A DNA stretch of 64,000 nucleotides from NCBI RefSeq assembly GCF_044324875.1, contig NZ_CP172185.1. One strand, 5' to 3'. Shown piece after piece: positions 6,902 to 57,295 of this stretch (its first letter is position 1; each line of letters starts with the position of its first letter). The position numbers and the translations under genes were made by a program. Source of the stretch: Escherichia coli (GTDB lineage: Bacteria; Pseudomonadota; Gammaproteobacteria; Enterobacterales; Enterobacteriaceae). A model generated the notes under the pieces. The model did no database searches. It was given only the letters and a program-made list of their open reading frames with translations, and was not told the origin of the DNA.

Positions 6902-9900
6902 TTACTCGGTTACCGTTTGTTTAGGTTTACGCGAAAAACGCAGCCGCAGACGGTCGAAAAAGAGATACACCACCGGCGTGGTATACAGCGTCAGAAGCTG
7001 GCTCATTACCAGACCGCCGACAATGGTGATCCCCAGGGGTTGCCGCAGCTCCGAGCCGTCACCGCCCGACAATACCAGCGGCAGCGCACCAAACAGCGCC
7101 GCCAGGGTAGTCATCATAATCGGGCGAAAACGCAGCAGACAGGCCTGGAAAATAGCTTCCTGCGGCGTGAGGTTACCGTGCCGTTGGGCTTCAAGCGCAA
7201 AATCGACCATCATAATGGCGTTTTTCTTCACGATGCCGATTAATAGCATGATCCCTATCAGGGCGATTAGGCTGAACGGGGCATTGAACAGCTCCAGCGC
7301 CAACAGCGCTCCAACGCCCGCCGAGGGCAGGGTGGAGAGAATCGTCAGCGGATGTACGTAACTCTCGTAAAGGATACCCAGCACGATATACACCGTGGCG
7401 ATGGCGGCGATAATCAGGATCACCTGCGAGTTCATCGTCTCCTGGAACACCTGCGCCGTGCCGGCAAAACTACCGCGCACCGTCGAAGGCACACCAAGCT
7501 GGGTCATTGCGCGATCGATCGCCGCACTGGCGTCCGAGAGCGATTTCCCGGTCGGCAGGTTAAACGAAATGGTCGAGGCCGCCGATAATCCCTGATGATT
7601 CACCGACAGCGGAGCATTCGCCGGTTGCCATTTAGCGAAATACGACAGCGGGATCGCTTTTCCTTCGTTATTGATAACGAACATTTTTTCCAGCGCACTG
7701 ATGTCCTGGGTATAGCGCGGATCCACTTCCATCACCACTTTATACTGGTTCATCGGCTGGTAAATGGTCGAGATTTGTCGCTGACCGAAGGCGTTATTTA
7801 ACAGGCTGTTGGCGGCCTGCACGTCGATTCCCAGCCGTGCCATAGTGTCGCGGTCGTAAACCAGATTCATCTCCGCGCCGTTATCCTGCTGGTCGGAGTT
7901 CACGTCCGCCAGTTCCGGCAATGTCGCCAGTTTTTTGCGGATTTTCGGTTCCCATTCGCGCAGTGCCGCCAGGTCGTCGGACAGTAACGTGTACTGATAG
8001 CTGGCGTTCGACTGACGTCCGCCAACGCGAATATCCTGTACCGCCATCAGGAACAGATTCGCCCCTGGTTCTTTCGCCAGCTTCACGCGCAGACGGTCGA
8101 TAATTTGCTGCGCCGTTTCGCTGCGTTCGCCGCGTGGCTTGAGGGTGATAAACATCATCCCGCTGTTCACCCGCGAACCGCCGGTAAATCCGGTGACATT
8201 ATCCACTGCCGGATCGTCACGGATAATTTTCATGAAATCCTGCAACTTACCGCGCATCGCCTGAAACGAAATACTCTGATCCGCCTGTATCCCGCCCATC
8301 AACACGCCGGTGTCCTGCTCCGGGAAGAAGGTTTTCGGGATCGAGATATACAGCCAGATATTCAAAGCAATGGTGCCAAGCAGCACCACGCCCACCAGAC
8401 GGGTATGATTAAGCCCCCATTTCAGCGACTTACCATAGCCTTGTTGCAGGGCTACCAACATGCGACCAAAACCACGTAGTCGCTTTTGCTCGCGCGGCTT
8501 GCTGGCTTTTAGCATCCAGCCGCACATCATCGGCGTTAGCGTCAGGGAAACCAGCAACGAAATCCCAATGGCGACAGAAAGCGTCACGGCAAATTCGCGT
8601 AACAGTCGGCCCGGCAATCCGCCCATCAACAGCAGCGGCAGGAACACCGCCACCAGTGACAGACTCATCGACAGCACCGTAAAACCGACTTCGCGAGTGC
8701 CTTGCAGCGCGGCCTGTAGCGGTTTCATCCCCGCCTCCAGATGACGGGCGATGTTTTCCAGCACCACGATGGCGTCATCCACCACGAAACCAGTAGCGAT
8801 GGTGAGCGCCATTAACGAAAGATTATTGAGACTGAATCCGCACAGGTACATCGCCGCAAACGTACCAATCAGCGAAACCGGCACCGCAACGGCGGGAATA
8901 ATAGTGGCGCGACCCGAGCGCAGGAATAAAAAGACCACCAGAATGACCAGCGCCACCGAGATAATCAGCGTTTGCTCGACTTCCTCCAGCGAGGCGCGAA
9001 TAGTGGGGGAGCGATCCTGGGCAATTTGCAGATCAATCGCCGCCGGAATGGTCTCCTGCAACTCCGGTAATTTTGCCCGGATGCTGTCAACCGTCTGGAT
9101 AATATTGGCTTCCGGCAGCTTGCGGATCATCAGCAAAATAGCCGGTTTGGCGTTGGTCATCCCGGCGTTGCGCACATCCTGCACTGAGTCGGTCACCGTC
9201 GCCACATCGCCCAGACGAACCGCGCCGCCGTTGTTGTAATGAATAATCAGCGGCTGATATTCAGCGGCGGTTTTCAGTTCATCGTTAGTCTGGATCTGCC
9301 AGCGGTGAGTGCCATCTTCCAGCGCCCCCTGCGGTTTACGCACGTTGGCATTGCTGATGGCAGTGCGAACATCGTCCAGCGACACGCCCTGATTAAACAG
9401 CGCCTGCGGATTCAGCCCGACGCGTACGGCGGGCAGTGAGCTGCCGCCGACATCGACATCACCAACACCGTCGATTTGCGAAATCGTCGGAGCCAGCTGC
9501 GTCGAGGCGAAATCGTACAGTTCACCCTGCGAATAAGTATCGGATGTCAGCGTGAGGATCATTATTGGCGCATCCGACGGGTTCGCTTTGCGATAGGTCG
9601 GACGGCTTGGCATCCCGCTGGGCAGCAAACTTTGCGCGGCGTTGATCGCCGCTTGCACATCGCGCGCTGCGCCGTTGATATCGCGGTCAAAATCAAACTG
9701 CAAAATAATGCGCGTGCTGCCGAGCGAACTGCTGGAGGTCATTTCACTGACCCCGGCAATGCGCCCAAGTGAGCGCTCCAGCGGCGTGGCAACGGAAGAC
9801 GCCATTGTTTCTGGTGACGCACCGGGCAGCGAGGCGCTGACCATAATCACCGGAAAATCGACCTGCGGCAGCGGGGCGACCGGCAGCATACGGAAGCCCA

Positions 9901-26283: not shown

Positions 26284-28137
26284 ATGAGACGATTTCTGAC
26301 GACGCTGATGATACTCCTGGTCGTGCTGGTGGCCGGGTTATCTGCGTTAGTGTTGCTGGTGAATCCGAATGATTTCCGCGACTATATGGTCAAGCAAGTT
26401 GCTGCACGTAGCGGTTATCAATTGCAGCTCGACGGGCCACTGCGTTGGCACGTCTGGCCGCAACTTAGTATCCTCTCCGGGCGAATGTCTCTCACTGCCC
26501 AGGGCGCGAGCCAGCCACTGGTTCGCGCAGACAACATGCGTCTGGACGTGGCGCTTTTACCACTGCTGAGTCATCAACTGAGCGTTAAGCAGGTGATGCT
26601 AAAAGGGGCAGTGATTCAACTGACGCCGCAGACGGAAGCGGTGCGCAGTGAAGACGCTCCGGTTGCACCGCGCGACAATACCTTGCCGGATCTGTCAGAC
26701 GATCGCGGATGGTCGTTTGATATATCCAGTCTTAAGGTGGCGGACAGCGTGCTGGTGTTCCAGCATGAAGATGACGAGCAGGTGACAATCCGCAATATTC
26801 GCCTGCAAATGGAACAAGATCCCCAACATCGTGGTTCATTTGAGTTCTCCGGGCGGGTTAATCGCGATCAGCGCGATCTCACGATATCCCTTAACGGTAC
26901 GGTAGATGCTTCTGATTATCCGCATGATTTAACGGCGGCTATTGAACAAGTTAACTGGCAGTTGCAGGGTGCAGATTTACCAAAACAAGGTATTCAGGGG
27001 CAGGGGAGTTTCCAGGCCCAGTGGCAGGAGTCACATAAACGCCTTTCATTTAACCAAATTAGTTTGACCGCCAATGACAGTACGCTGAGCGGGCAAGCAC
27101 AGGTCACACTGACAGAGAAACCGGAATGGCAGCTGAGACTGCAATTTCCGCAACTGAATCTTGACAACCTCATCCCGCTTAATGAAACAGCGAACGGTGA
27201 AAACGGTGCCGCGCAGCAGGGGCAGAGCCAATCAACGTTGCCGCGCCCGGTCATTTCTTCGCGTATTGATGAACCGGCCTATCAGGGACTGCAAGGCTTT
27301 ACGGCTGATATTTTGTTGCAGGCCAGTAACGTGCGCTGGCGCGGAATGAATTTTACAGATGTTGCCACGCAAATGACCAACAAGTCGGGTTTGCTGGAAA
27401 TTACTCAACTGCAGGGCAAACTTAACGGTGGACAGGTTTCACTGCCGGGCACGCTGGACGCGACATCAATAAATCCGCGGATAAACTTCCAGCCACGGCT
27501 GGAAAACGTTGAGATTGGTACCATTCTGAAGGCGTTTAACTATCCGATTTCGTTGACCGGAAAGATGTCACTGGCTGGTGATTTCTCCGGTGCTGACATA
27601 GATGCCGACGCATTCCGCCATAACTGGCAAGGACAGGCACATGTCGAAATGACCGACACGCGCATGGAAGGGATGAACTTCCAGCAGATGATTCAGCAAG
27701 CGGTAGAACGTAATGGTGGTGATGTGAAGGCCGCTGAAAACTTCGATAACGTAACGCGTCTTGACCGCTTTACCACCGATTTGACGTTGAAGGATGGCGT
27801 CGTGACGTTAAACGACATGCAAGGTCAATCGCCCATGCTGGCGCTTTCCGGGGCTGGTACGTTGAATCTGGCGGAGCAAACCTGTGACACCCAGTTTGAT
27901 ATTCGGGTCGTGGGGGGCTGGAACGGGGAAAGCAAACTGATTGATTTCCTCAAAGAAACGCCAGTACCGCTGCGGGTTTATGGCAACTGGCAGCAACTCA
28001 ATTACAGTCTGCAAGTGGATCAGTTACTGCGCAAACATCTACAGGACGAAGCGAAACGTCGCCTGAATGACTGGGCCGAGCGGAATAAAGATTCCCGCAA
28101 TGGCAAAGATGTGAAGAAGTTGCTGGAGAAGATGTAG
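26284..28137 (+). CDS. asmA: outer-membrane assembly/lipid transport protein AsmA
   Basis: 617-aa ORF with N-terminal membrane anchor MRRFLTTLMILLVVLVAGLSALVLL and a long periplasmic AsmA-like domain. Confidence 0.93.
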   Translation: MRRFLTTLMILLVVLVAGLSALVLLVNPNDFRDYMVKQVAARSGYQLQLDGPLRWHVWPQLSILSGRMSLTAQGASQPLVRADNMRLDVALLPLLSHQLSVKQVMLKGAVIQLTPQTEAVRSEDAPVAPRDNTLPDLSDDRGWSFDISSLKVADSVLVFQHEDDEQVTIRNIRLQMEQDPQHRGSFEFSGRVNRDQRDLTISLNGTVDASDYPHDLTAAIEQVNWQLQGADLPKQGIQGQGSFQAQWQESHKRLSFNQISLTANDSTLSGQAQVTLTEKPEWQLRLQFPQLNLDNLIPLNETANGENGAAQQGQSQSTLPRPVISSRIDEPAYQGLQGFTADILLQASNVRWRGMNFTDVATQMTNKSGLLEITQLQGKLNGGQVSLPGTLDATSINPRINFQPRLENVEIGTILKAFNYPISLTGKMSLAGDFSGADIDADAFRHNWQGQAHVEMTDTRMEGMNFQQMIQQAVERNGGDVKAAENFDNVTRLDRFTTDLTLKDGVVTLNDMQGQSPMLALSGAGTLNLAEQTCDTQFDIRVVGGWNGESKLIDFLKETPVPLRVYGNWQQLNYSLQVDQLLRKHLQDEAKRRLNDWAERNKDSRNGKDVKKLLEKM

Positions 28138-28157
28138 GTTACCAGGTGACCTGTCCT

Positions 28158-28194
28158 GTAGGCCTGATAAGACGCGTAAAGCGTCGCATCAGGC
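28158..28194. repeat. REP element downstream of asmA
   Basis: gtaggcctgataagacgcg...gcgtcgcatcaggc palindromic REP consensus. Confidence 0.7.
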
Positions 28195-28429
28195 GTTCGT
28201 GGCGGCACCATTATATTCTGAATATGTAAGATCGAAGGCTGTTCCGTTCACTTGATGTTCCTCGCTACTATGGAACGCTCAAGCCGGTGAACGTGCCAGG
28301 GTGGCTCAATCTCCACCACCCTGGCAACCCGGACCCACACCCCCGCTGTGATGTCCGTTTACCACAGACAATGCTTCATTGCTGAAGTTATAAGGCGTTA
28401 CGCAGCATTGGGTAAAATGGCCGATACCA

Positions 28430-30013
28430 TCACACCTCGTACTCCATCTCGCTATCCTTACGCAGCGGTATAATCTGCACCTTCTGCACGCGATGGCTTT
28501 CCACCTGCAACGTTTTAAGCAAATAATCCCCCACCTGAACTTCTTCGCCAGGTTTTGGAATACGCTGCAAATATTCCATCAGCAGCCCGGCAATGGTGTG
28601 ATATTCGCGTTTCTCATCCAGCGGTAGCGGCACATATTGCACCAGATCTTCCAGTGGCATATGACCATTCGCCGTCCAGGAACCGTCGGCGTTTTTCTGA
28701 ATATCATGGCGGGCGTCGATCTCTTCCACTTCGTTCGGCAAGTTACCGGCAATAGTTTCCGTGACGTCACTTAATGTCACAATCCCTTCCACCGAGCCAA
28801 ACTCATCCACTACAAAAGCAAAGTGCGTGCGGGCATTACGGAACTGCTCCAGGGCAGGTAACAACGGCAAGGTTTCCGGGAACACCAGCGGCTGGCGAAT
28901 CAACACCCGCAGGTTGAGCGGTTCGCCGCGCAGAGACTGTTGTAGCAGGTCGATAACGTGAACAACACCGAGCAAATCTTCTGCGTCATCACCGTCGGTA
29001 ACCACCAACCGCGTATGCTGATTTCGCTCCAGCAACTGGCGGATTTCTTCTTCCGGCGCGTTGAGATCGATATGCTCAATATCGTGGCGCGACGTCATAA
29101 TGCTGCTGACGGTACGCTGGTTAAGATTAAGTACCCGCTCAATCATCCGCCGTTCCTGCGGATTAAAGATCTGCTGGTTACCATGATCCACCAGCATGGA
29201 CGCGGTTTCGGCGTCCAGTTCCGCATCTTCTTTTTGCCCGCTAAGCAGGCGCATTACCGCTTCGGTAGTCCGCTGGCGCAGCGTCTGGTTAGCGGAAAGA
29301 AAACGTCGCCGGTTAAAGATAGCCAACTGATTGAGCGCCTCGATCATCACCGAGAAACCAATAGCAGCGTACAGGTAGCCTTTCGGAATGACGAAGCCGA
29401 AACCTTCTGCCACCAGGCTAAAGCCAATCATCAACAGGAAGCTTAAGCAGAGAATAACGATCGTCGGGTGACTGTTAACAAATTGCGTTAACGGCTTGCT
29501 GGCCATCAACATCAGGCTAATAGCGATAACGACGGCGGCCATCATGACCAGTAAATGGTCGACCATCCCGACGGCGGTAATCACCGAGTCGAGTGAGAAG
29601 ATGGCGTCCAGTACCACAATTTGTGTCACCACCCCCCAGAACTTCGCACCTTTGCGTTGCGTGGGGTTATTGCTGTCTTTCCCTTCCAGCCGTTCGTTCA
29701 GCTCCATCGTGGCTTTGAACAGCAGGAAGAAACCACCAAACAGCATGATTAAGTCGCGGGCGCTAAAGGTAAACGAGCGAAAGCTGAATAGCGGTTGTGT
29801 CAGGGTGACCAGCCAGGAGATTGACGCCAGCAGTAACAGGCGCATTAACATCGCCAGCAGCAGCCCGGTAACCCGTGCGCGGTCGCGCTGCTTCGGCGGT
29901 AGTTTTTCGGCGAGGATGGCAATAAAGACCAGGTTATCAATGCCGAGGACCAGTTCGATCACAATCAGCGTGATTAACCCGGCCCAGATAGACGGATCGG
30001 CAATCCATTCCAT
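28430..30013 (-). CDS. yegH: TerC-family membrane domain fused to CBS/CorC domains, YegH (UPF0053)
   Basis: ATG at 30013 gives [34 protein letters not shown] (527 aa), matching recalled YegH. The ORF-track N-terminal extension was rejected. Confidence 0.88.
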
Positions 30014-35884: not shown

Positions 35885-37098
35885 ATATTCTGCAATTTAA
35901 TGTGCGACTGGCGGAAGGCGGGGCAGCAGGTGTGGCGTTAGATCTCCACCAGCGCGCGCTGCAACAGGGGCTGGCGTCACATTTTGTCTACGGCTACGGC
36001 AAAGGCGGCAAAGAGAGCGTCAGCCATCAGAACTATCCGCAGGTCATCAAACATACGCCGCGGATGACCGCGATGGCGAACATTGCGTTGTTTCGTCTGT
36101 TTAATCGCGATCTGTTTGGCAATTTCAATGAGTTATATCGCACTATTACCCGCACACCGGGTCCGGTGGTCCTGCATTTTCATGTGCTGCACAGCTACTG
36201 GTTGAATCTTAACAGCGTGGTGCGCTTTTGCGAAAAAGTGAAAAACCATAAACCGGATGTCACTCTGGTCTGGACGCTGCACGACCACTGGAGCGTTACC
36301 GGACGCTGCGCCTTTACCGACGGTTGCGAAGGCTGGAAAACGGGCTGCCAGAAATGCCCGACCTTAAATAATTATCCGCCGGTGAAGATTGATCGCGCAC
36401 ACCAACTGGTGGCGGGCAAACGGCAGTTATTCCGTGAGATGCTGGCACTGGGCTGTCAGTTTATTTCCCCCAGCCAGCATGTGGCTGACGCTTTCAATAA
36501 CCTGTACGGTCCAGGGCGTTGCCGGATTATCAATAACGGTATTGATATGGCAACCGAAGCGATTTTGGCGGACTTGCCTCCGGTACGCGAAACCCAGGGC
36601 AAGCCGAAAATCGCGGTGGTGGCGCATGATCTGCGTTACGACGGCAAAACTAACCAGCAACTGGTACGCGAGATGATGGCGCTGGGTGACAAAATCGAAC
36701 TGCATACTTTCGGTAAGTTCTCACCGTTCACCGCTGGTAATGTGGTCAATCACGGCTTTGAAACCGACAAACGTAAACTGATGAGCGCGCTCAACCAGAT
36801 GGATGCGCTGGTATTCAGTTCTCGCGTCGATAACTACCCGCTGATTTTGTGTGAGGCGTTATCGATTGGCGTGCCGGTGATTGCCACCCATAGCGATGCG
36901 GCGCGTGAAGTGCTGCAAAAATCCGGTGGTAAAACCGTCAGCGAAGAAGATGTGCTGCAGCTGGTGCAGTTAAGCAAACCGGAAATCGCACAGGCGATAT
37001 TTGGTACCACGCTGGCTGAGTTCAGCCAGCGCAGCCGCGCCGCCTACAGTGGACAACAGATGCTGGAGGAGTATGTCAACTTCTATCAGAATCTGTAG
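35881..37098 (+). CDS. wcaC: colanic acid GT4 glycosyltransferase WcaC
   Basis: 405-aa ORF; start overlaps the wcaB stop; position in the cluster. Confidence 0.9.
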   Translation: MNILQFNVRLAEGGAAGVALDLHQRALQQGLASHFVYGYGKGGKESVSHQNYPQVIKHTPRMTAMANIALFRLFNRDLFGNFNELYRTITRTPGPVVLHFHVLHSYWLNLNSVVRFCEKVKNHKPDVTLVWTLHDHWSVTGRCAFTDGCEGWKTGCQKCPTLNNYPPVKIDRAHQLVAGKRQLFREMLALGCQFISPSQHVADAFNNLYGPGRCRIINNGIDMATEAILADLPPVRETQGKPKIAVVAHDLRYDGKTNQQLVREMMALGDKIELHTFGKFSPFTAGNVVNHGFETDKRKLMSALNQMDALVFSSRVDNYPLILCEALSIGVPVIATHSDAAREVLQKSGGKTVSEEDVLQLVQLSKPEIAQAIFGTTLAEFSQRSRAAYSGQQMLEEYVNFYQNL

Positions 37099-38290
37099 CT
37101 ACCTGCTGCTGCCGCTGATTTACCTGTTGGTTAACGTCAAAATCGCCCAGCTTGGCGAAAGTTTCCCCATCACCATCGTCACTTTTTTACCTGTCTTGTT
37201 ACTGCTGTTTTTAGAACGCATCAGCGTTAAAAAATTGATGATTGCCTTAGGGATTGGTGCGGGACTCACGGCGTTTAACTATCTGTTTGGTCAGTCGTTG
37301 GATGCCAGTAAATACGTCACTTCAACCATGCTGTTTGTCTATATTGTGATCATTATTGGCATGGTGTGGAGTATTCGCTTTAAAACGATTTCGCCACACA
37401 ACCATCGCAAGATATTACGTTTCTTTTATCTGGTGGTCGGGTTGGTGGTGGCGCTGGCGGCGGTGGAGATGGCGCAAATTATCCTCACCGGCGGCAGCAG
37501 TATTATGGAATCGATTTCGAAATATCTGATTTACAGCAACAGCTATGTGCTGAATTTCATCAAATTCGGCGGCAAGCGCACGACAGCACTTTATTTCGAA
37601 CCGGCATTTTTCGCTCTGGCATTAATCTCAATTTGGCTCAGCATCAAACAGTTTGGTATCAAAACCCCTAAAACCGATGCTATGATTCTCGCAGGGATAA
37701 TATTATCCGGATCGTTTTCAGGGGTTATGACCTTTATCCTGTTTTATTTGCTGGAGTGGGCATTTCAATATCTGAATAAAGAGGCGATTAAGAAAAAGTT
37801 ACCGTTAGCATTGATTTCTCTGGCTGTATTCCTGGTTGGTGTGGTAATCGCGTTTCCTTATATTTCCACCCGTCTGGGCGATTTAGGTACGGAAGGATCG
37901 TCATCATATTATCGTATTGTCGGTCCGCTGGTGATGGTCGGTTATTCTTTGACCCATATTGACGGTGTAGTCAGATTTGGCTCACTTTATGAATATGTCG
38001 CATCATTCGGAATATTTAACGGTGCGGATGTCGGAAAAACCATAGACAATGGTTTGTATCTGCTGATTATTTATTTTTCCTGGTTCGCGGTGTTTTTATC
38101 ACTGTGGTACATGGGGAAAGTGATAAAAATGATGATCAACGCTTTTGGTGATAACCGCAATTTTCGCGTGCAATTATATCTTTTTACTCCGGTATCGCTG
38201 TTTTTTACCGGTTCGATATTTAGCCCGGAATATGCATTTTTAATCGTCTGTCCGTTTATTTTGCGAAAAGCGTTAAATATTACGAGGTAA
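37073..38290 (+). CDS. wcaD: colanic acid polymerase WcaD
   Basis: ATG at 37073 gives [28 protein letters not shown] (405 aa), a polytopic membrane protein. Overlaps the wcaC 3' end in another frame. The upstream TTG extension was rejected. Confidence 0.88.
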
Positions 38291-44868: not shown

Positions 44869-44995
<127 letters not shown>

Positions 44996-49360: not shown

Positions 49361-49387
49361 ATGGTTGTTTTCGGTTCCGACAACGGT

Positions 49388-49672
49388 TGCCGGATGCGGC
49401 GTGAACGCCTTATCCGTCCTACGGCTCTGTGCTCGGGTCTTGTAGGCCTGATAAGACGCGCCAGCGTCGCATCAGGCACTAAATGCCGGATGCGGCGTAA
49501 AACGCCTTATCCATCCTACGGTTCTGTGCTCGGGACCTGTAGGCCTGATAAGACGCGTCAGCGTCGCATCAGGCACTGAATGCTGGATGCGGCGTGAACG
49601 CCTTATCCGGCCTACGGTTCTGTGCTCGGGTCTTGTAGGCCTGATAAGACGCGCCAGCGTCGCATCAGGCAA
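49388..49672. repeat. BIME cluster: three tandem ~95-bp units of paired REP elements between wzxC and wcaK
   Basis: Three near-identical copies of gccggatgcggcgtgaacgccttatccg.cctacgg.tctgtgctcggg.cttgtaggcctgataagacgcg.cagcgtcgcatcaggca. Confidence 0.85.
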
Positions 49673-56100: not shown

Positions 56101-57295
56101 TATTGATATAAATAAGAAACAGATATTAGTTTTGACTCCACGGTTCCCGTTTCCTGTCATTGGTGGGGATCGATTACGTATCTATAAGATCTGTAAAGAA
56201 CTGTCTAAGCATTATGATCTTACGTTGCTGAGTCTGTGTGATAAACGCGAAGAGCTCAACTATGAATATGATCGTGAAGTTTTTAGTAGTGTTCACAGAG
56301 TATATCTTTCAAAGAAAAAATCTATTTTAAATGTCATATTCTCTTTGTTTTCAAATACTCCCCTACAGATTGGGTATTATAAATCTAAAGAATTTGAAGA
56401 TAAACTTAAGCAGTTATTACCTGAACATTCTGCAACTCTTTCACATTTGATAAGGGTTGGTGATTATGTGAAAGAGAATAAAGATATAAATTTTTTAGAG
56501 ATGACCGATGCCATTTCACTTAATTATAAACGAGTAAAGGAAAAAGCATCTTTATTGAGTTTAAAAACATTTGTATATTCTTTTGAACAAAAAAGACTCG
56601 AACGATATGAGCGAACTATAAATAACAAGTTCAGCTTGACTACTTTGGTATCACAGGTTGACTCCGATTATTTATATCCAGACCGTCCGAATAATGTATT
56701 AGTCTGTGGAAATGGTGTTGATGCCGTTAGCTTACCTTTTTCAGAACGAAAAATAGCTAAAGATAAAAAGATAACCCTTGTATTTATAGGTAATTTATAT
56801 TCTTTGCAAAATATGGATGGTGTGAGATGGTTCACCAAGGAAGTTTTACCATTTCTTAACAAGCATGGTAATTTTGAATTTAAGGTCATCGGACGTATTA
56901 CAGATAAAGATAAGAGTTGGTTAGAAAGCCAGCCTGGCGTTGTTGTCACAGGTGAAGTTGATAGCATAACTTATGCAGCAGCTGATGGGCATATTGGTGT
57001 ATGTCCTATTAGATTAGGGGCAGGTATCCAAAATAAGGTACTTGAATATATGGCGTTGGGATTACCTTGTATCTCTTCTACTGTAGGCTTTGAAGGCTTG
57101 GGAGCAGAGGAGGGTAAGGAGATTTATGTTGCCAATACAAAAGAAGAATATTTACGTGTATTAAATTATTTTATAACAAATCTGGATAAATATACCGAAA
57201 CAGCATTAGTTGCGAAAAAGTTTATCGGTGAGAATTTTTCATGGGAAGCTAAATTGAGCCCATATATCCAGAAAATTAAGGAGTCTGTTAAATAA
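56093..57295 (+). CDS. O-antigen glycosyltransferase, GT4 family
   Basis: 400-aa ORF; start overlaps the previous gene. GT4 C-terminal region ([33 protein letters not shown]). Confidence 0.8.

Follow-up and report, generated by a model that had tools for sequence, protein, structure and literature searches.

The locus described here lies in a 64-kb stretch of Escherichia coli DNA, hereafter the window, and consists of the gap between two convergent genes, asmA and yegH, together with the repeats that occupy it. The features are listed below in window coordinates; the abbreviation RRS (replication risk sequence) refers to a repeat family introduced further on.

26284..28137, + strand: asmA coding sequence, the upstream convergent gene (617-aa ORF)
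28162..28194: REP element, a 14-nt imperfect inverted repeat, distinct from the RRS-like repeat
28238..28337, + strand: 5' module (hairpin A, hairpin B and C-rich tail) of a probable RRS-family relic, located with covariance model R1
28245..28293: hairpin A, with arms CGTTCAC (28245-28251) and GTGAACG (28287-28293) around a 35-nt loop, read from the sequence
28294..28326: hairpin B, the reported palindrome, with arms at 28294-28304 and 28316-28326 and the loop at 28305-28315
28329..28332: junction of a 159-bp internal deletion, within a CCGG microhomology, placed by alignment with the full allele of strain 98212
28333..28350, + strand: 3' tail of the repeat, ACCCACACCCCCGCTGTG, placed by family alignments, with an approximate end point
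28430..30013, - strand: yegH, encoding a TerC-family membrane protein, the downstream convergent gene (ORF ending at 28430; the start coordinate was inferred from the 1584-bp length of the homologous gene annotated in E. coli records)

The 3' part of asmA is 97-98% identical to the annotated asmA in E. coli records. The first-pass annotation had placed a perfect 9-bp inverted repeat in a gap of roughly 290 bp between the two genes, and the palindrome is present exactly as written there, in a gap of 292 bp. Both arms, CCAGGGTGG (28296-28304) and CCACCCTGG (28316-28324), were confirmed in the window letters, but the pairing runs two bases further outward on each side, so that the true arms are 11 bp long (TGCCAGGGTGG at 28294-28304 and CCACCCTGGCA at 28316-28326). 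The resulting stem-loop, hairpin B, has 11 perfect pairs around the 11-nt loop CTCAATCTCCA (28305-28315) and is flanked by ACCCGGACCC and CACGTTCACC. As a single DNA strand, a 49-nt segment containing it has a predicted folding energy of -13.8 kcal/mol on the + strand (z about -3.8) and -14.4 kcal/mol on the - strand (z about -3.9). The earlier view that this is not a classical intrinsic terminator is borne out, as there is no T-run on either strand and no terminator-like site between 27900 and 28700; a terminator and promoter interpretation was dropped when the scan found nothing relevant. Rfam gave no match over the palindrome or over the family unit described below at E values up to 10, including the ~700-bp composites of Kluyvera.

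The REP element that had been noted nearby was found at 28162-28194. The gap has a sub-threshold Rfam match to naRNA4, a REP-derived family, at 28161-28233, which covers the REP and not the palindrome; the REP sits 100 bp upstream of the palindrome. REP-like sequence itself is limited to 28161-28198, and the palindrome has no similarity to REP. Elsewhere in the window, similarity to this REP located REP-like clusters at 44888-44970 and 49387-49670, several copies falling between about 49.4 and 49.7 kb. The 64 kb contain three perfect inverted repeats whose arms measure at least 11 bp and whose loops span 3-20 nt, against 0.18 +/- 0.44 expected from first-order Markov simulations; taken alone, this count is only modest evidence against chance. 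The other two lie at 38093-38129 (TTTTTATCACT...AGTGATAAAAA, 15-nt loop) and 56436-56476 (CTCTTTCACAT...ATGTGAAAGAG, 19-nt loop). That the palindrome at asmA-yegH is clearly non-random follows from its homology and covariation, to which we now turn.

The palindrome is one stem-loop of a dispersed DNA repeat of about 250 bp, the replication risk sequence (RRS), also known as TRIP1. The name RRS dates from 2023, and K-12 is the only strain that has been studied; its authors note that a 1999 list (Rudd 1999) already contained the repeat, under the name TRIP1 and together with 'a third partial repeat' (Pham et al. 2023, PMC10287960). The canonical RRS are two nearly perfect GC-rich repeats of 222 bp, one near lysO and one near dusC, both at a distance of about 650 kb from dif. 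Once the lagging-strand template becomes single-stranded, intact RRS fold and leave a post-replication gap (PMC10287960, PMC11194060), and in vitro they block Pol I, II and IV at a segment termed 'G4' (PMC10287960, PMC11194060, PMC13308219). They trigger RecA/SSB-bound lagging-strand gaps and influence genome topology; lysO and dusC are the only two prominent RecA/SSB peaks reported in K-12 (PMC10287960, PMC11194060, PMC13308219). At both loci, as the literature emphasizes, the lagging-strand template is the G4 strand. The C strand also triggers gaps in vitro, with reduced efficiency (Kusi-Appauh et al. 2026 preprint, PMC13308219). Cloned RRS could not be sequenced by standard protocols, according to the RRS authors. 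Neither hairpins nor their covariation are described in the RRS papers, in which the word 'hairpin' occurs 0 times.

Several lines of evidence place the window element in this family. The family core GGGCGCGAGGTAAC was found by full-text search to lie inside primers RRS-1F and RRS-1R of Pham et al. 2024, and the K-12 loci named in the RRS papers, lysO-aqpZ and dusC-yohP, carry canonical copies. The full-length asmA-yegH allele (see below) is 73% identical to RRS-dusC over 253 nt and matches its paralogues with BLAST E values of 1e-38 to 1e-49. The remnant in the window is 75% identical to a copy of the same subtype (type II) at proX, and its A+B part has only 55-57% identity to canonical RRS, because both stems have been rewritten by compensatory changes. 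What assigns the window copy to the family is thus the link through the full-length allele, together with a structure-aware model. This covariance model, R1, was trained on 20 canonical RRS 5' modules alone; rows from asmA-yegH, type II and type III copies were kept out. It matches window positions 28238-28337 on the + strand over the full model length with hairpins A and B in register (34.7 bits, E 1.8e-7 by a rough calibration), which is the sole significant match in the 64 kb; the next-best matches have E values of 0.09 and 0.65. The better of these, at 35913-35968 on the - strand (13.5 bits, E about 0.09), has a broken hairpin and is probably due to chance.

The anatomy of the remnant follows the canonical order. 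The + strand of the window corresponds to the 'C strand' of the RRS papers, and hairpin A is homologous to GCGCTCCTT...AAGGAGCGC of canonical RRS. The 159-bp internal deletion took hairpins C, D and E along with the long-range stem that closes their domain, and left hairpin A, hairpin B and the tail; the BLAST pieces that meet at the junction are 28138-28330 and 28329-28429. Beyond the 3' tail at 28333-28350, similarity to the family fades. We designate the element type II, as hairpin B has arms CCAGGGTGG / CCACCCTGG in place of the canonical GGGGGCGG / CCGCCCCC and the G5 runs are shortened to G3. The hairpin B loop, in the window and in K-12, carries a G-to-T change relative to the family motif AATCGCC (CTCAATCTCCA in the window, CTCAATCGCCA without the mutation).

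The 3' arm of hairpin B and the C-run that follows it are the opposite strand of the RRS 'G4' sequence 5'-GGGGGTGCAGGGGGCGGCGG (PMC11194060), and from this position the window palindrome is homologous to the polymerase-stalling segment. According to the RRS authors, there is no further exact G4 site in K-12 (PMC11194060). The exact 20-mer is likewise missing in the window, where GGGTTGCCAGGGTGGTGG stands in its place; the G-runs of this homologue have lengths of 3, 1, 3, 2 and 2, as compared with 5, 1, 5, 2 and 2 in the canonical sequence. Judged from its letters, this stretch may form a two-tetrad G4. The window copy is not a complete 222-bp unit, 159 bp being deleted.

The position and orientation of the copy also differ from those of the canonical pair. 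The asmA-yegH copy lies at 2,139.57 kb in K-12 coordinates, about 90 kb closer to dif than RRS-dusC (2,229.2 kb), and is not among the two dif-symmetric copies. The G-type strand is the + strand in the asmA-yegH copy and the - strand in RRS-dusC (K-12). In the replichore assignment of K-12, the - strand at RRS-dusC is the lagging-strand template. By synteny, assuming collinearity with K-12, the G-rich strand of the window copy would thus be on the leading-strand template, opposite to RRS-dusC.

We used the full asmA-yegH allele to assess the distribution of the family. It finds between one and ten places per E. coli genome (median 3), including paralogues of 78-86% identity in the unrelated intergenic regions lysO-aqpZ, dusC-yohP, putP-efeU and proX-MFS, and 12 places on one chromosome of Klebsiella. 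When one genome per species was scanned with a 19-base family pattern, copies turned up in Enterobacteriaceae only, apart from a few chance matches, with representatives in Escherichia, Citrobacter, Kluyvera, Trabulsiella and Pseudocitrobacter; at least 10 copies are present in Kluyvera cryocrescens.

In an alignment of 35 sequences, the unit has the order hairpin A, hairpin B, a long-range stem enclosing hairpins D and E, and a tail. The named structure leaves 93.9% of the alignment cells paired, as compared with 38-46% in slid controls; 24 pairs change on both sides, and the observed score was reached by 0 of 500 shuffles. Hairpin A (helix 1) has nine pairs, four of them with double changes, and 93% of its cells are paired, while the respective numbers for hairpin B (helix 2) are 12 pairs, eight with double changes, and 96%. 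The long-range stem (helices 3-4) also shows covariation when its pairs are counted; a local hairpin C may form in its place, and RNAalifold picked pairings other than either. There were 37 G:T and 23 A:C mismatches, a count dominated by one pair that gives no strand polarity.

Hairpin B occurs in the variants GGTGG/CCACC, GGCGG/CCGCC, GGAGG/CCTCC, TTAAGGGAGC/GCTCCCTTAA and CAAAAGGAGG/CCTCCTTTTG. Among the arm pairs, GGGGGCGG / CCGCCCCC is the commonest, CCAGGGTGG / CCACCCTGG is found at asmA-yegH and proX, TTAAGGG[A/T/G]GC / GC[T/A/C]CCCTTAA in Citrobacter, and CAAAAGGAGG / CCTCCTTTTG in strain LSJC7; a further variant is GGGGGAGG / CCTCCCCC, and in Klebsiella the outer G-C pair is replaced by A-T. 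ATCGCC, in the 3' part of the loop, is a conserved motif of the family. Hairpin B is thus conserved by covariation, and the G-runs are lineage-specific, being reduced from G5 to G3 or absent across copies. In three loci (L056, L009 and L016), the assemblies contain Ns and G or C runs exactly at hairpin B, which calls for caution in counting variants there.

At the asmA-yegH locus itself, a series of length alleles emerged when 5,426 complete E. coli genomes were searched with the gap sequence by megablast; four of these alleles were aligned:

Strain 98212 (full allele): gap of 451 bp, the reference
Window: gap of 292 bp, lacking 159 internal bp, with the junction 3 to 6 nt past the palindrome
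K-12: gap of 273 bp, with a different deletion located further downstream
AVS0096 (empty allele): gap of 67 bp, with the REP and a few bases kept

The palindrome region is present in 4300 of the 5426 genomes (79%), including both partial-deletion alleles, and also in the cryptic Escherichia clades; within Escherichia, the conservation check proposed with the original observation came out in its favor. The window-type junction occurs in 395 of the 5426 genomes. Three divergent Escherichia clade genomes have the element at asmA-yegH, one (L029) in the E. coli orientation and two (L016 and L025) inverted. Its presence in these clades indicates that the element is ancestral and that the three shorter alleles arose in E. 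coli by successive deletion. AVS0096 was also considered as an empty site; it has no recognizable target-site duplication and is better read as a deletion. The inverted elements (L016 at 8665-9123, and L025) are bracketed by inverted REPs, which could have mediated the flip.

A second partial copy is found in K-12 between putP and efeU (L065, 1845-2050). It consists of canonical hairpins A and B, a deletion and the tail; 124 bp are lost from a point 2 nt into hairpin B's 3' arm onward, and strain E50 has the full version (L006). Thus, in addition to its two functional RRS, K-12 has two partial copies, at asmA-yegH and at putP-efeU, which goes beyond the RRS papers and bears on the RRS 'double deletion' strains. 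Other deletions in the family have their end points at hairpin bases, next to them, or between short direct repeats. Such clustering would be expected from slippage at a stalled polymerase, and it fits in vivo stalling of synthesis by these structures.

The canonical loci lysO and dusC are occupied in almost all E. coli, and in natural isolates each of the two canonical RRS is found in both directions between its unchanged flanking genes, with differences in the immediate flanks. The lysO copy is inverted relative to K-12 (strain-104 type) in 1,282 of 5,425 genomes (24%), and the dusC copy (A36 type) in 1,999 of 5,425 (37%); these counts follow from thresholds of at least 80% allele coverage and are not a per-genome census. 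Examples are the inverted lysO-aqpZ allele of E. coli strain 104 (L070, 939-1394, compared with L064 of K-12) and the inverted dusC-yohP allele of strain A36 (L007, 2339-2725, compared with L063 of K-12). All four combinations of lysO and dusC orientations occur among Escherichia lineages. This occurrence in either orientation goes beyond the RRS literature, and the naturally inverted copies provide ready-made material on the orientation dependence of RRS function.

Based on these results, we consider it highly probable that the palindrome is stem-loop B of a decayed and divergent RRS/TRIP1 5' module, most likely a relic with little or no RRS activity. For the palindrome itself this is a deflationary outcome, a decaying copy of a recently described repeat; of the earlier reading, the non-terminator and conservation parts stand and the rest is superseded. 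Hairpin B of the window copy would fold on transiently single-stranded DNA (about -14 kcal/mol), and the copy would probably contribute mainly to local replication slippage, which would give rise to the nested deletion alleles at asmA-yegH. By analogy, an inverted and weakened copy could keep some gap activity, because in vitro the RRS C strand is a gap trigger too (PMC13308219). Selection, and not chance, might explain why 79% of E. coli genomes, and both partial-deletion alleles, still have the palindrome. For the family as a whole we advance a more tentative proposal, plausible but short of probable, that a Watson-Crick hairpin, as part of a multi-hairpin fold, and not a G-quadruplex is the conserved core of the polymerase-blocking segment, and that RRS is a modular, deletion-prone, multi-copy family and not a fixed Ter-flanking pair. 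This proposal is made because pairing is kept where the G-runs are shortened (type II) or absent (type III, in Citrobacter and Trabulsiella), and because the C strand, which has no predicted G4, is active in the gap assay in vitro. What has been called a G-quadruplex segment is in any case one arm of a covarying hairpin, including in subfamilies without G5 runs.

A different view of the family, which we regard as rather unlikely, is that it represents the structured end of a non-autonomous MITE-like element whose hairpins are recognition structures for a transposase or recombinase and are not selected by the host. Mobility of this kind would agree with the variable copy number (1-10 in E. coli, at least 10 in Kluyvera cryocrescens, 12 in Klebsiella), with presence/absence and orientation polymorphisms at several loci, with copies near-identical across genera (also PMC10287960), and with the ~700-bp composites of Kluyvera, which end in an inverted hairpin-A/hairpin-B module and in some cases have outer inverted repeats. 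The absence of strand polarity in the mismatches (37 versus 23, again dominated by one pair) is likewise as expected for DNA and not for RNA. However, no transposase partner was found for the family, there is no target-site duplication or clean empty site at asmA-yegH, putP-efeU or proX, and the self-BLAST of the composite gave no long terminal repeat beyond the hairpin itself. Nor were there phage matches, and the plasmid matches are mislabelled chromosomes or chromosomal fragments, on which grounds a phage or plasmid origin was also rejected; moreover, almost all E. coli have the two canonical loci filled.

The two roles that the first-pass annotation had suggested for the palindrome, an RNA stability element or a protein-binding site, are not supported. 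It is improbable that the palindrome is an RNA element, either a 3'-UTR hairpin shielding the asmA or yegH mRNA from 3' exonucleases or a terminator acting without a T-run. Its position downstream of two convergent genes and the stability of the stem on both strands would suit such a role, and REP elements can act as mRNA 3'-protecting hairpins. Yet the repeat sits in many unrelated intergenic regions, upstream, downstream and between functionally unrelated genes, and in both orientations at the same loci; it is missing in about 21% of E. coli, it lacks a T-run, a terminator-like site and an Rfam match, and the G:U versus A:C counts, dominated as they are by one pair, have no bias toward a transcribed strand. 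An operator-like site for a dimeric sequence-specific DNA-binding protein is more improbable still. The dyad is perfect, and the conserved (A)ATCGCC loop motif, with a related AATCGCCG twice more in the unit, would offer a possible protein contact. Paralogues in the same genome, however, differ in their arms and remain complementary, which is the signature of a folded strand and not of a half-site consensus and also speaks against a function bound to a single transcript; the 11-nt spacer between 11-bp half sites is atypical, and the window copy is mutated in the very loop motif that is conserved. As to a chance palindrome in a GC-rich spacer, the expectation of about 0.18 such repeats per 64 kb is not astronomically low, but the homology to a multi-copy family, the covariation and the covariance-model match refute this reading and leave it a negligible probability. 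Among other candidates, the RSA repeat (Blattner/Bachellier) was dropped once RRS was identified, and small ORFs or a type I toxin were rejected because the ORFs of the full allele are not conserved between copies.

The preferred reading, a degraded RRS module, can be set against other repeat systems. With RRS/TRIP1 the window locus shares homology, hairpin order, a GC-rich composition, an intergenic location and the palindrome at the position of the 'G4' segment, and several assemblies show artefacts at hairpin B, as was the case for cloned RRS; it differs in its G3 runs, the loss of 159 bp, a location off the dif-symmetric position and a G-rich strand on the leading-strand template, as judged from synteny with K-12, and the RRS papers report no gap peak at asmA-yegH. 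The BoxC/PIT/TM-ECO triplex repeats (Holder et al. 2015, PMC4666352) are likewise short GC-rich intergenic palindromic repeats in highly variable intergenic regions, with local deletions and no promoter or terminator activity. Identity with them was rejected, as their consensus CCCTCNCCC-N3-6-GGGNGAGGG-N3-GGGNGAGGG is not matched and a third homopurine block is lacking (PMC4666352). REP/BIME elements are also extragenic palindromes between convergent genes, but REP are about 35 bp long and present in hundreds of copies, whereas hairpin B is part of a ~250-bp unit with 1-10 copies per genome. The pilE G4 of Neisseria gonorrhoeae (cited in PMC11194060) resembles RRS as a programmed DNA structure that locally perturbs replication or recombination, but it is a genuine quadruplex built from G3 tracts and has an sRNA promoter of its own, whereas the conserved feature of RRS is a Watson-Crick hairpin. 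ERIC/IRU and enterobacterial MITE-like repeats share dispersed intergenic locations, imperfect palindromes, presence/absence polymorphism and a copy number that varies between species; in contrast to RRS, which has multiple hairpins and functional data, ERIC is a single 127-bp hairpin, and there is no sequence similarity between the two.

Some additional observations concern RRS copies outside E. coli. In Kluyvera, the RRS unit forms the left part of a non-coding composite of about 700 bp (L053, ~7300-8400, - strand), in which it is followed by one to three tandem units of about 40 bp (GCTGCAAGTTTTCAGCTAAAAGCCAACGCCAATATC), a conserved middle and, at the far end, the inverted hairpin-A/hairpin-B module, which is of the Citrobacter type. 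The outer inverted repeats of some of these composites are GTAATGCTGGTCAGTTAAG, and further Kluyvera and Pseudocitrobacter composites are found at loci L012, L024 and L045-L058. In the Klebsiella pneumoniae record CP110563.1, a triplex motif of the BoxC/TM-ECO type, CCCTCTCCCTCCGGGAGAGGGCCAGGGTGAGGGG, lies about 50 bp upstream of the RRS copy (L068, 331-365); this 85-kb record and several other RRS-bearing 'plasmid' records look chromosomal. Finally, five copies, belonging to two genera, have an IS110-family element inserted in the RRS hairpin D loop at an identical point (GGTAACAT^ATCCCTG), namely those of Kluyvera YDC799 (L038 at ~1530-2905, L036 and L037) and Citrobacter Awk 4 (L060 and L061). 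The transposase of this element has 346 aa with the Pfam domains DEDD_Tnp_IS110 and Transposase_20. In the non-coding end of the element lies GTTACCTC, the complement of the target GAGGTAAC, and this complementarity suggests RNA-guided targeting of the RRS repeat.
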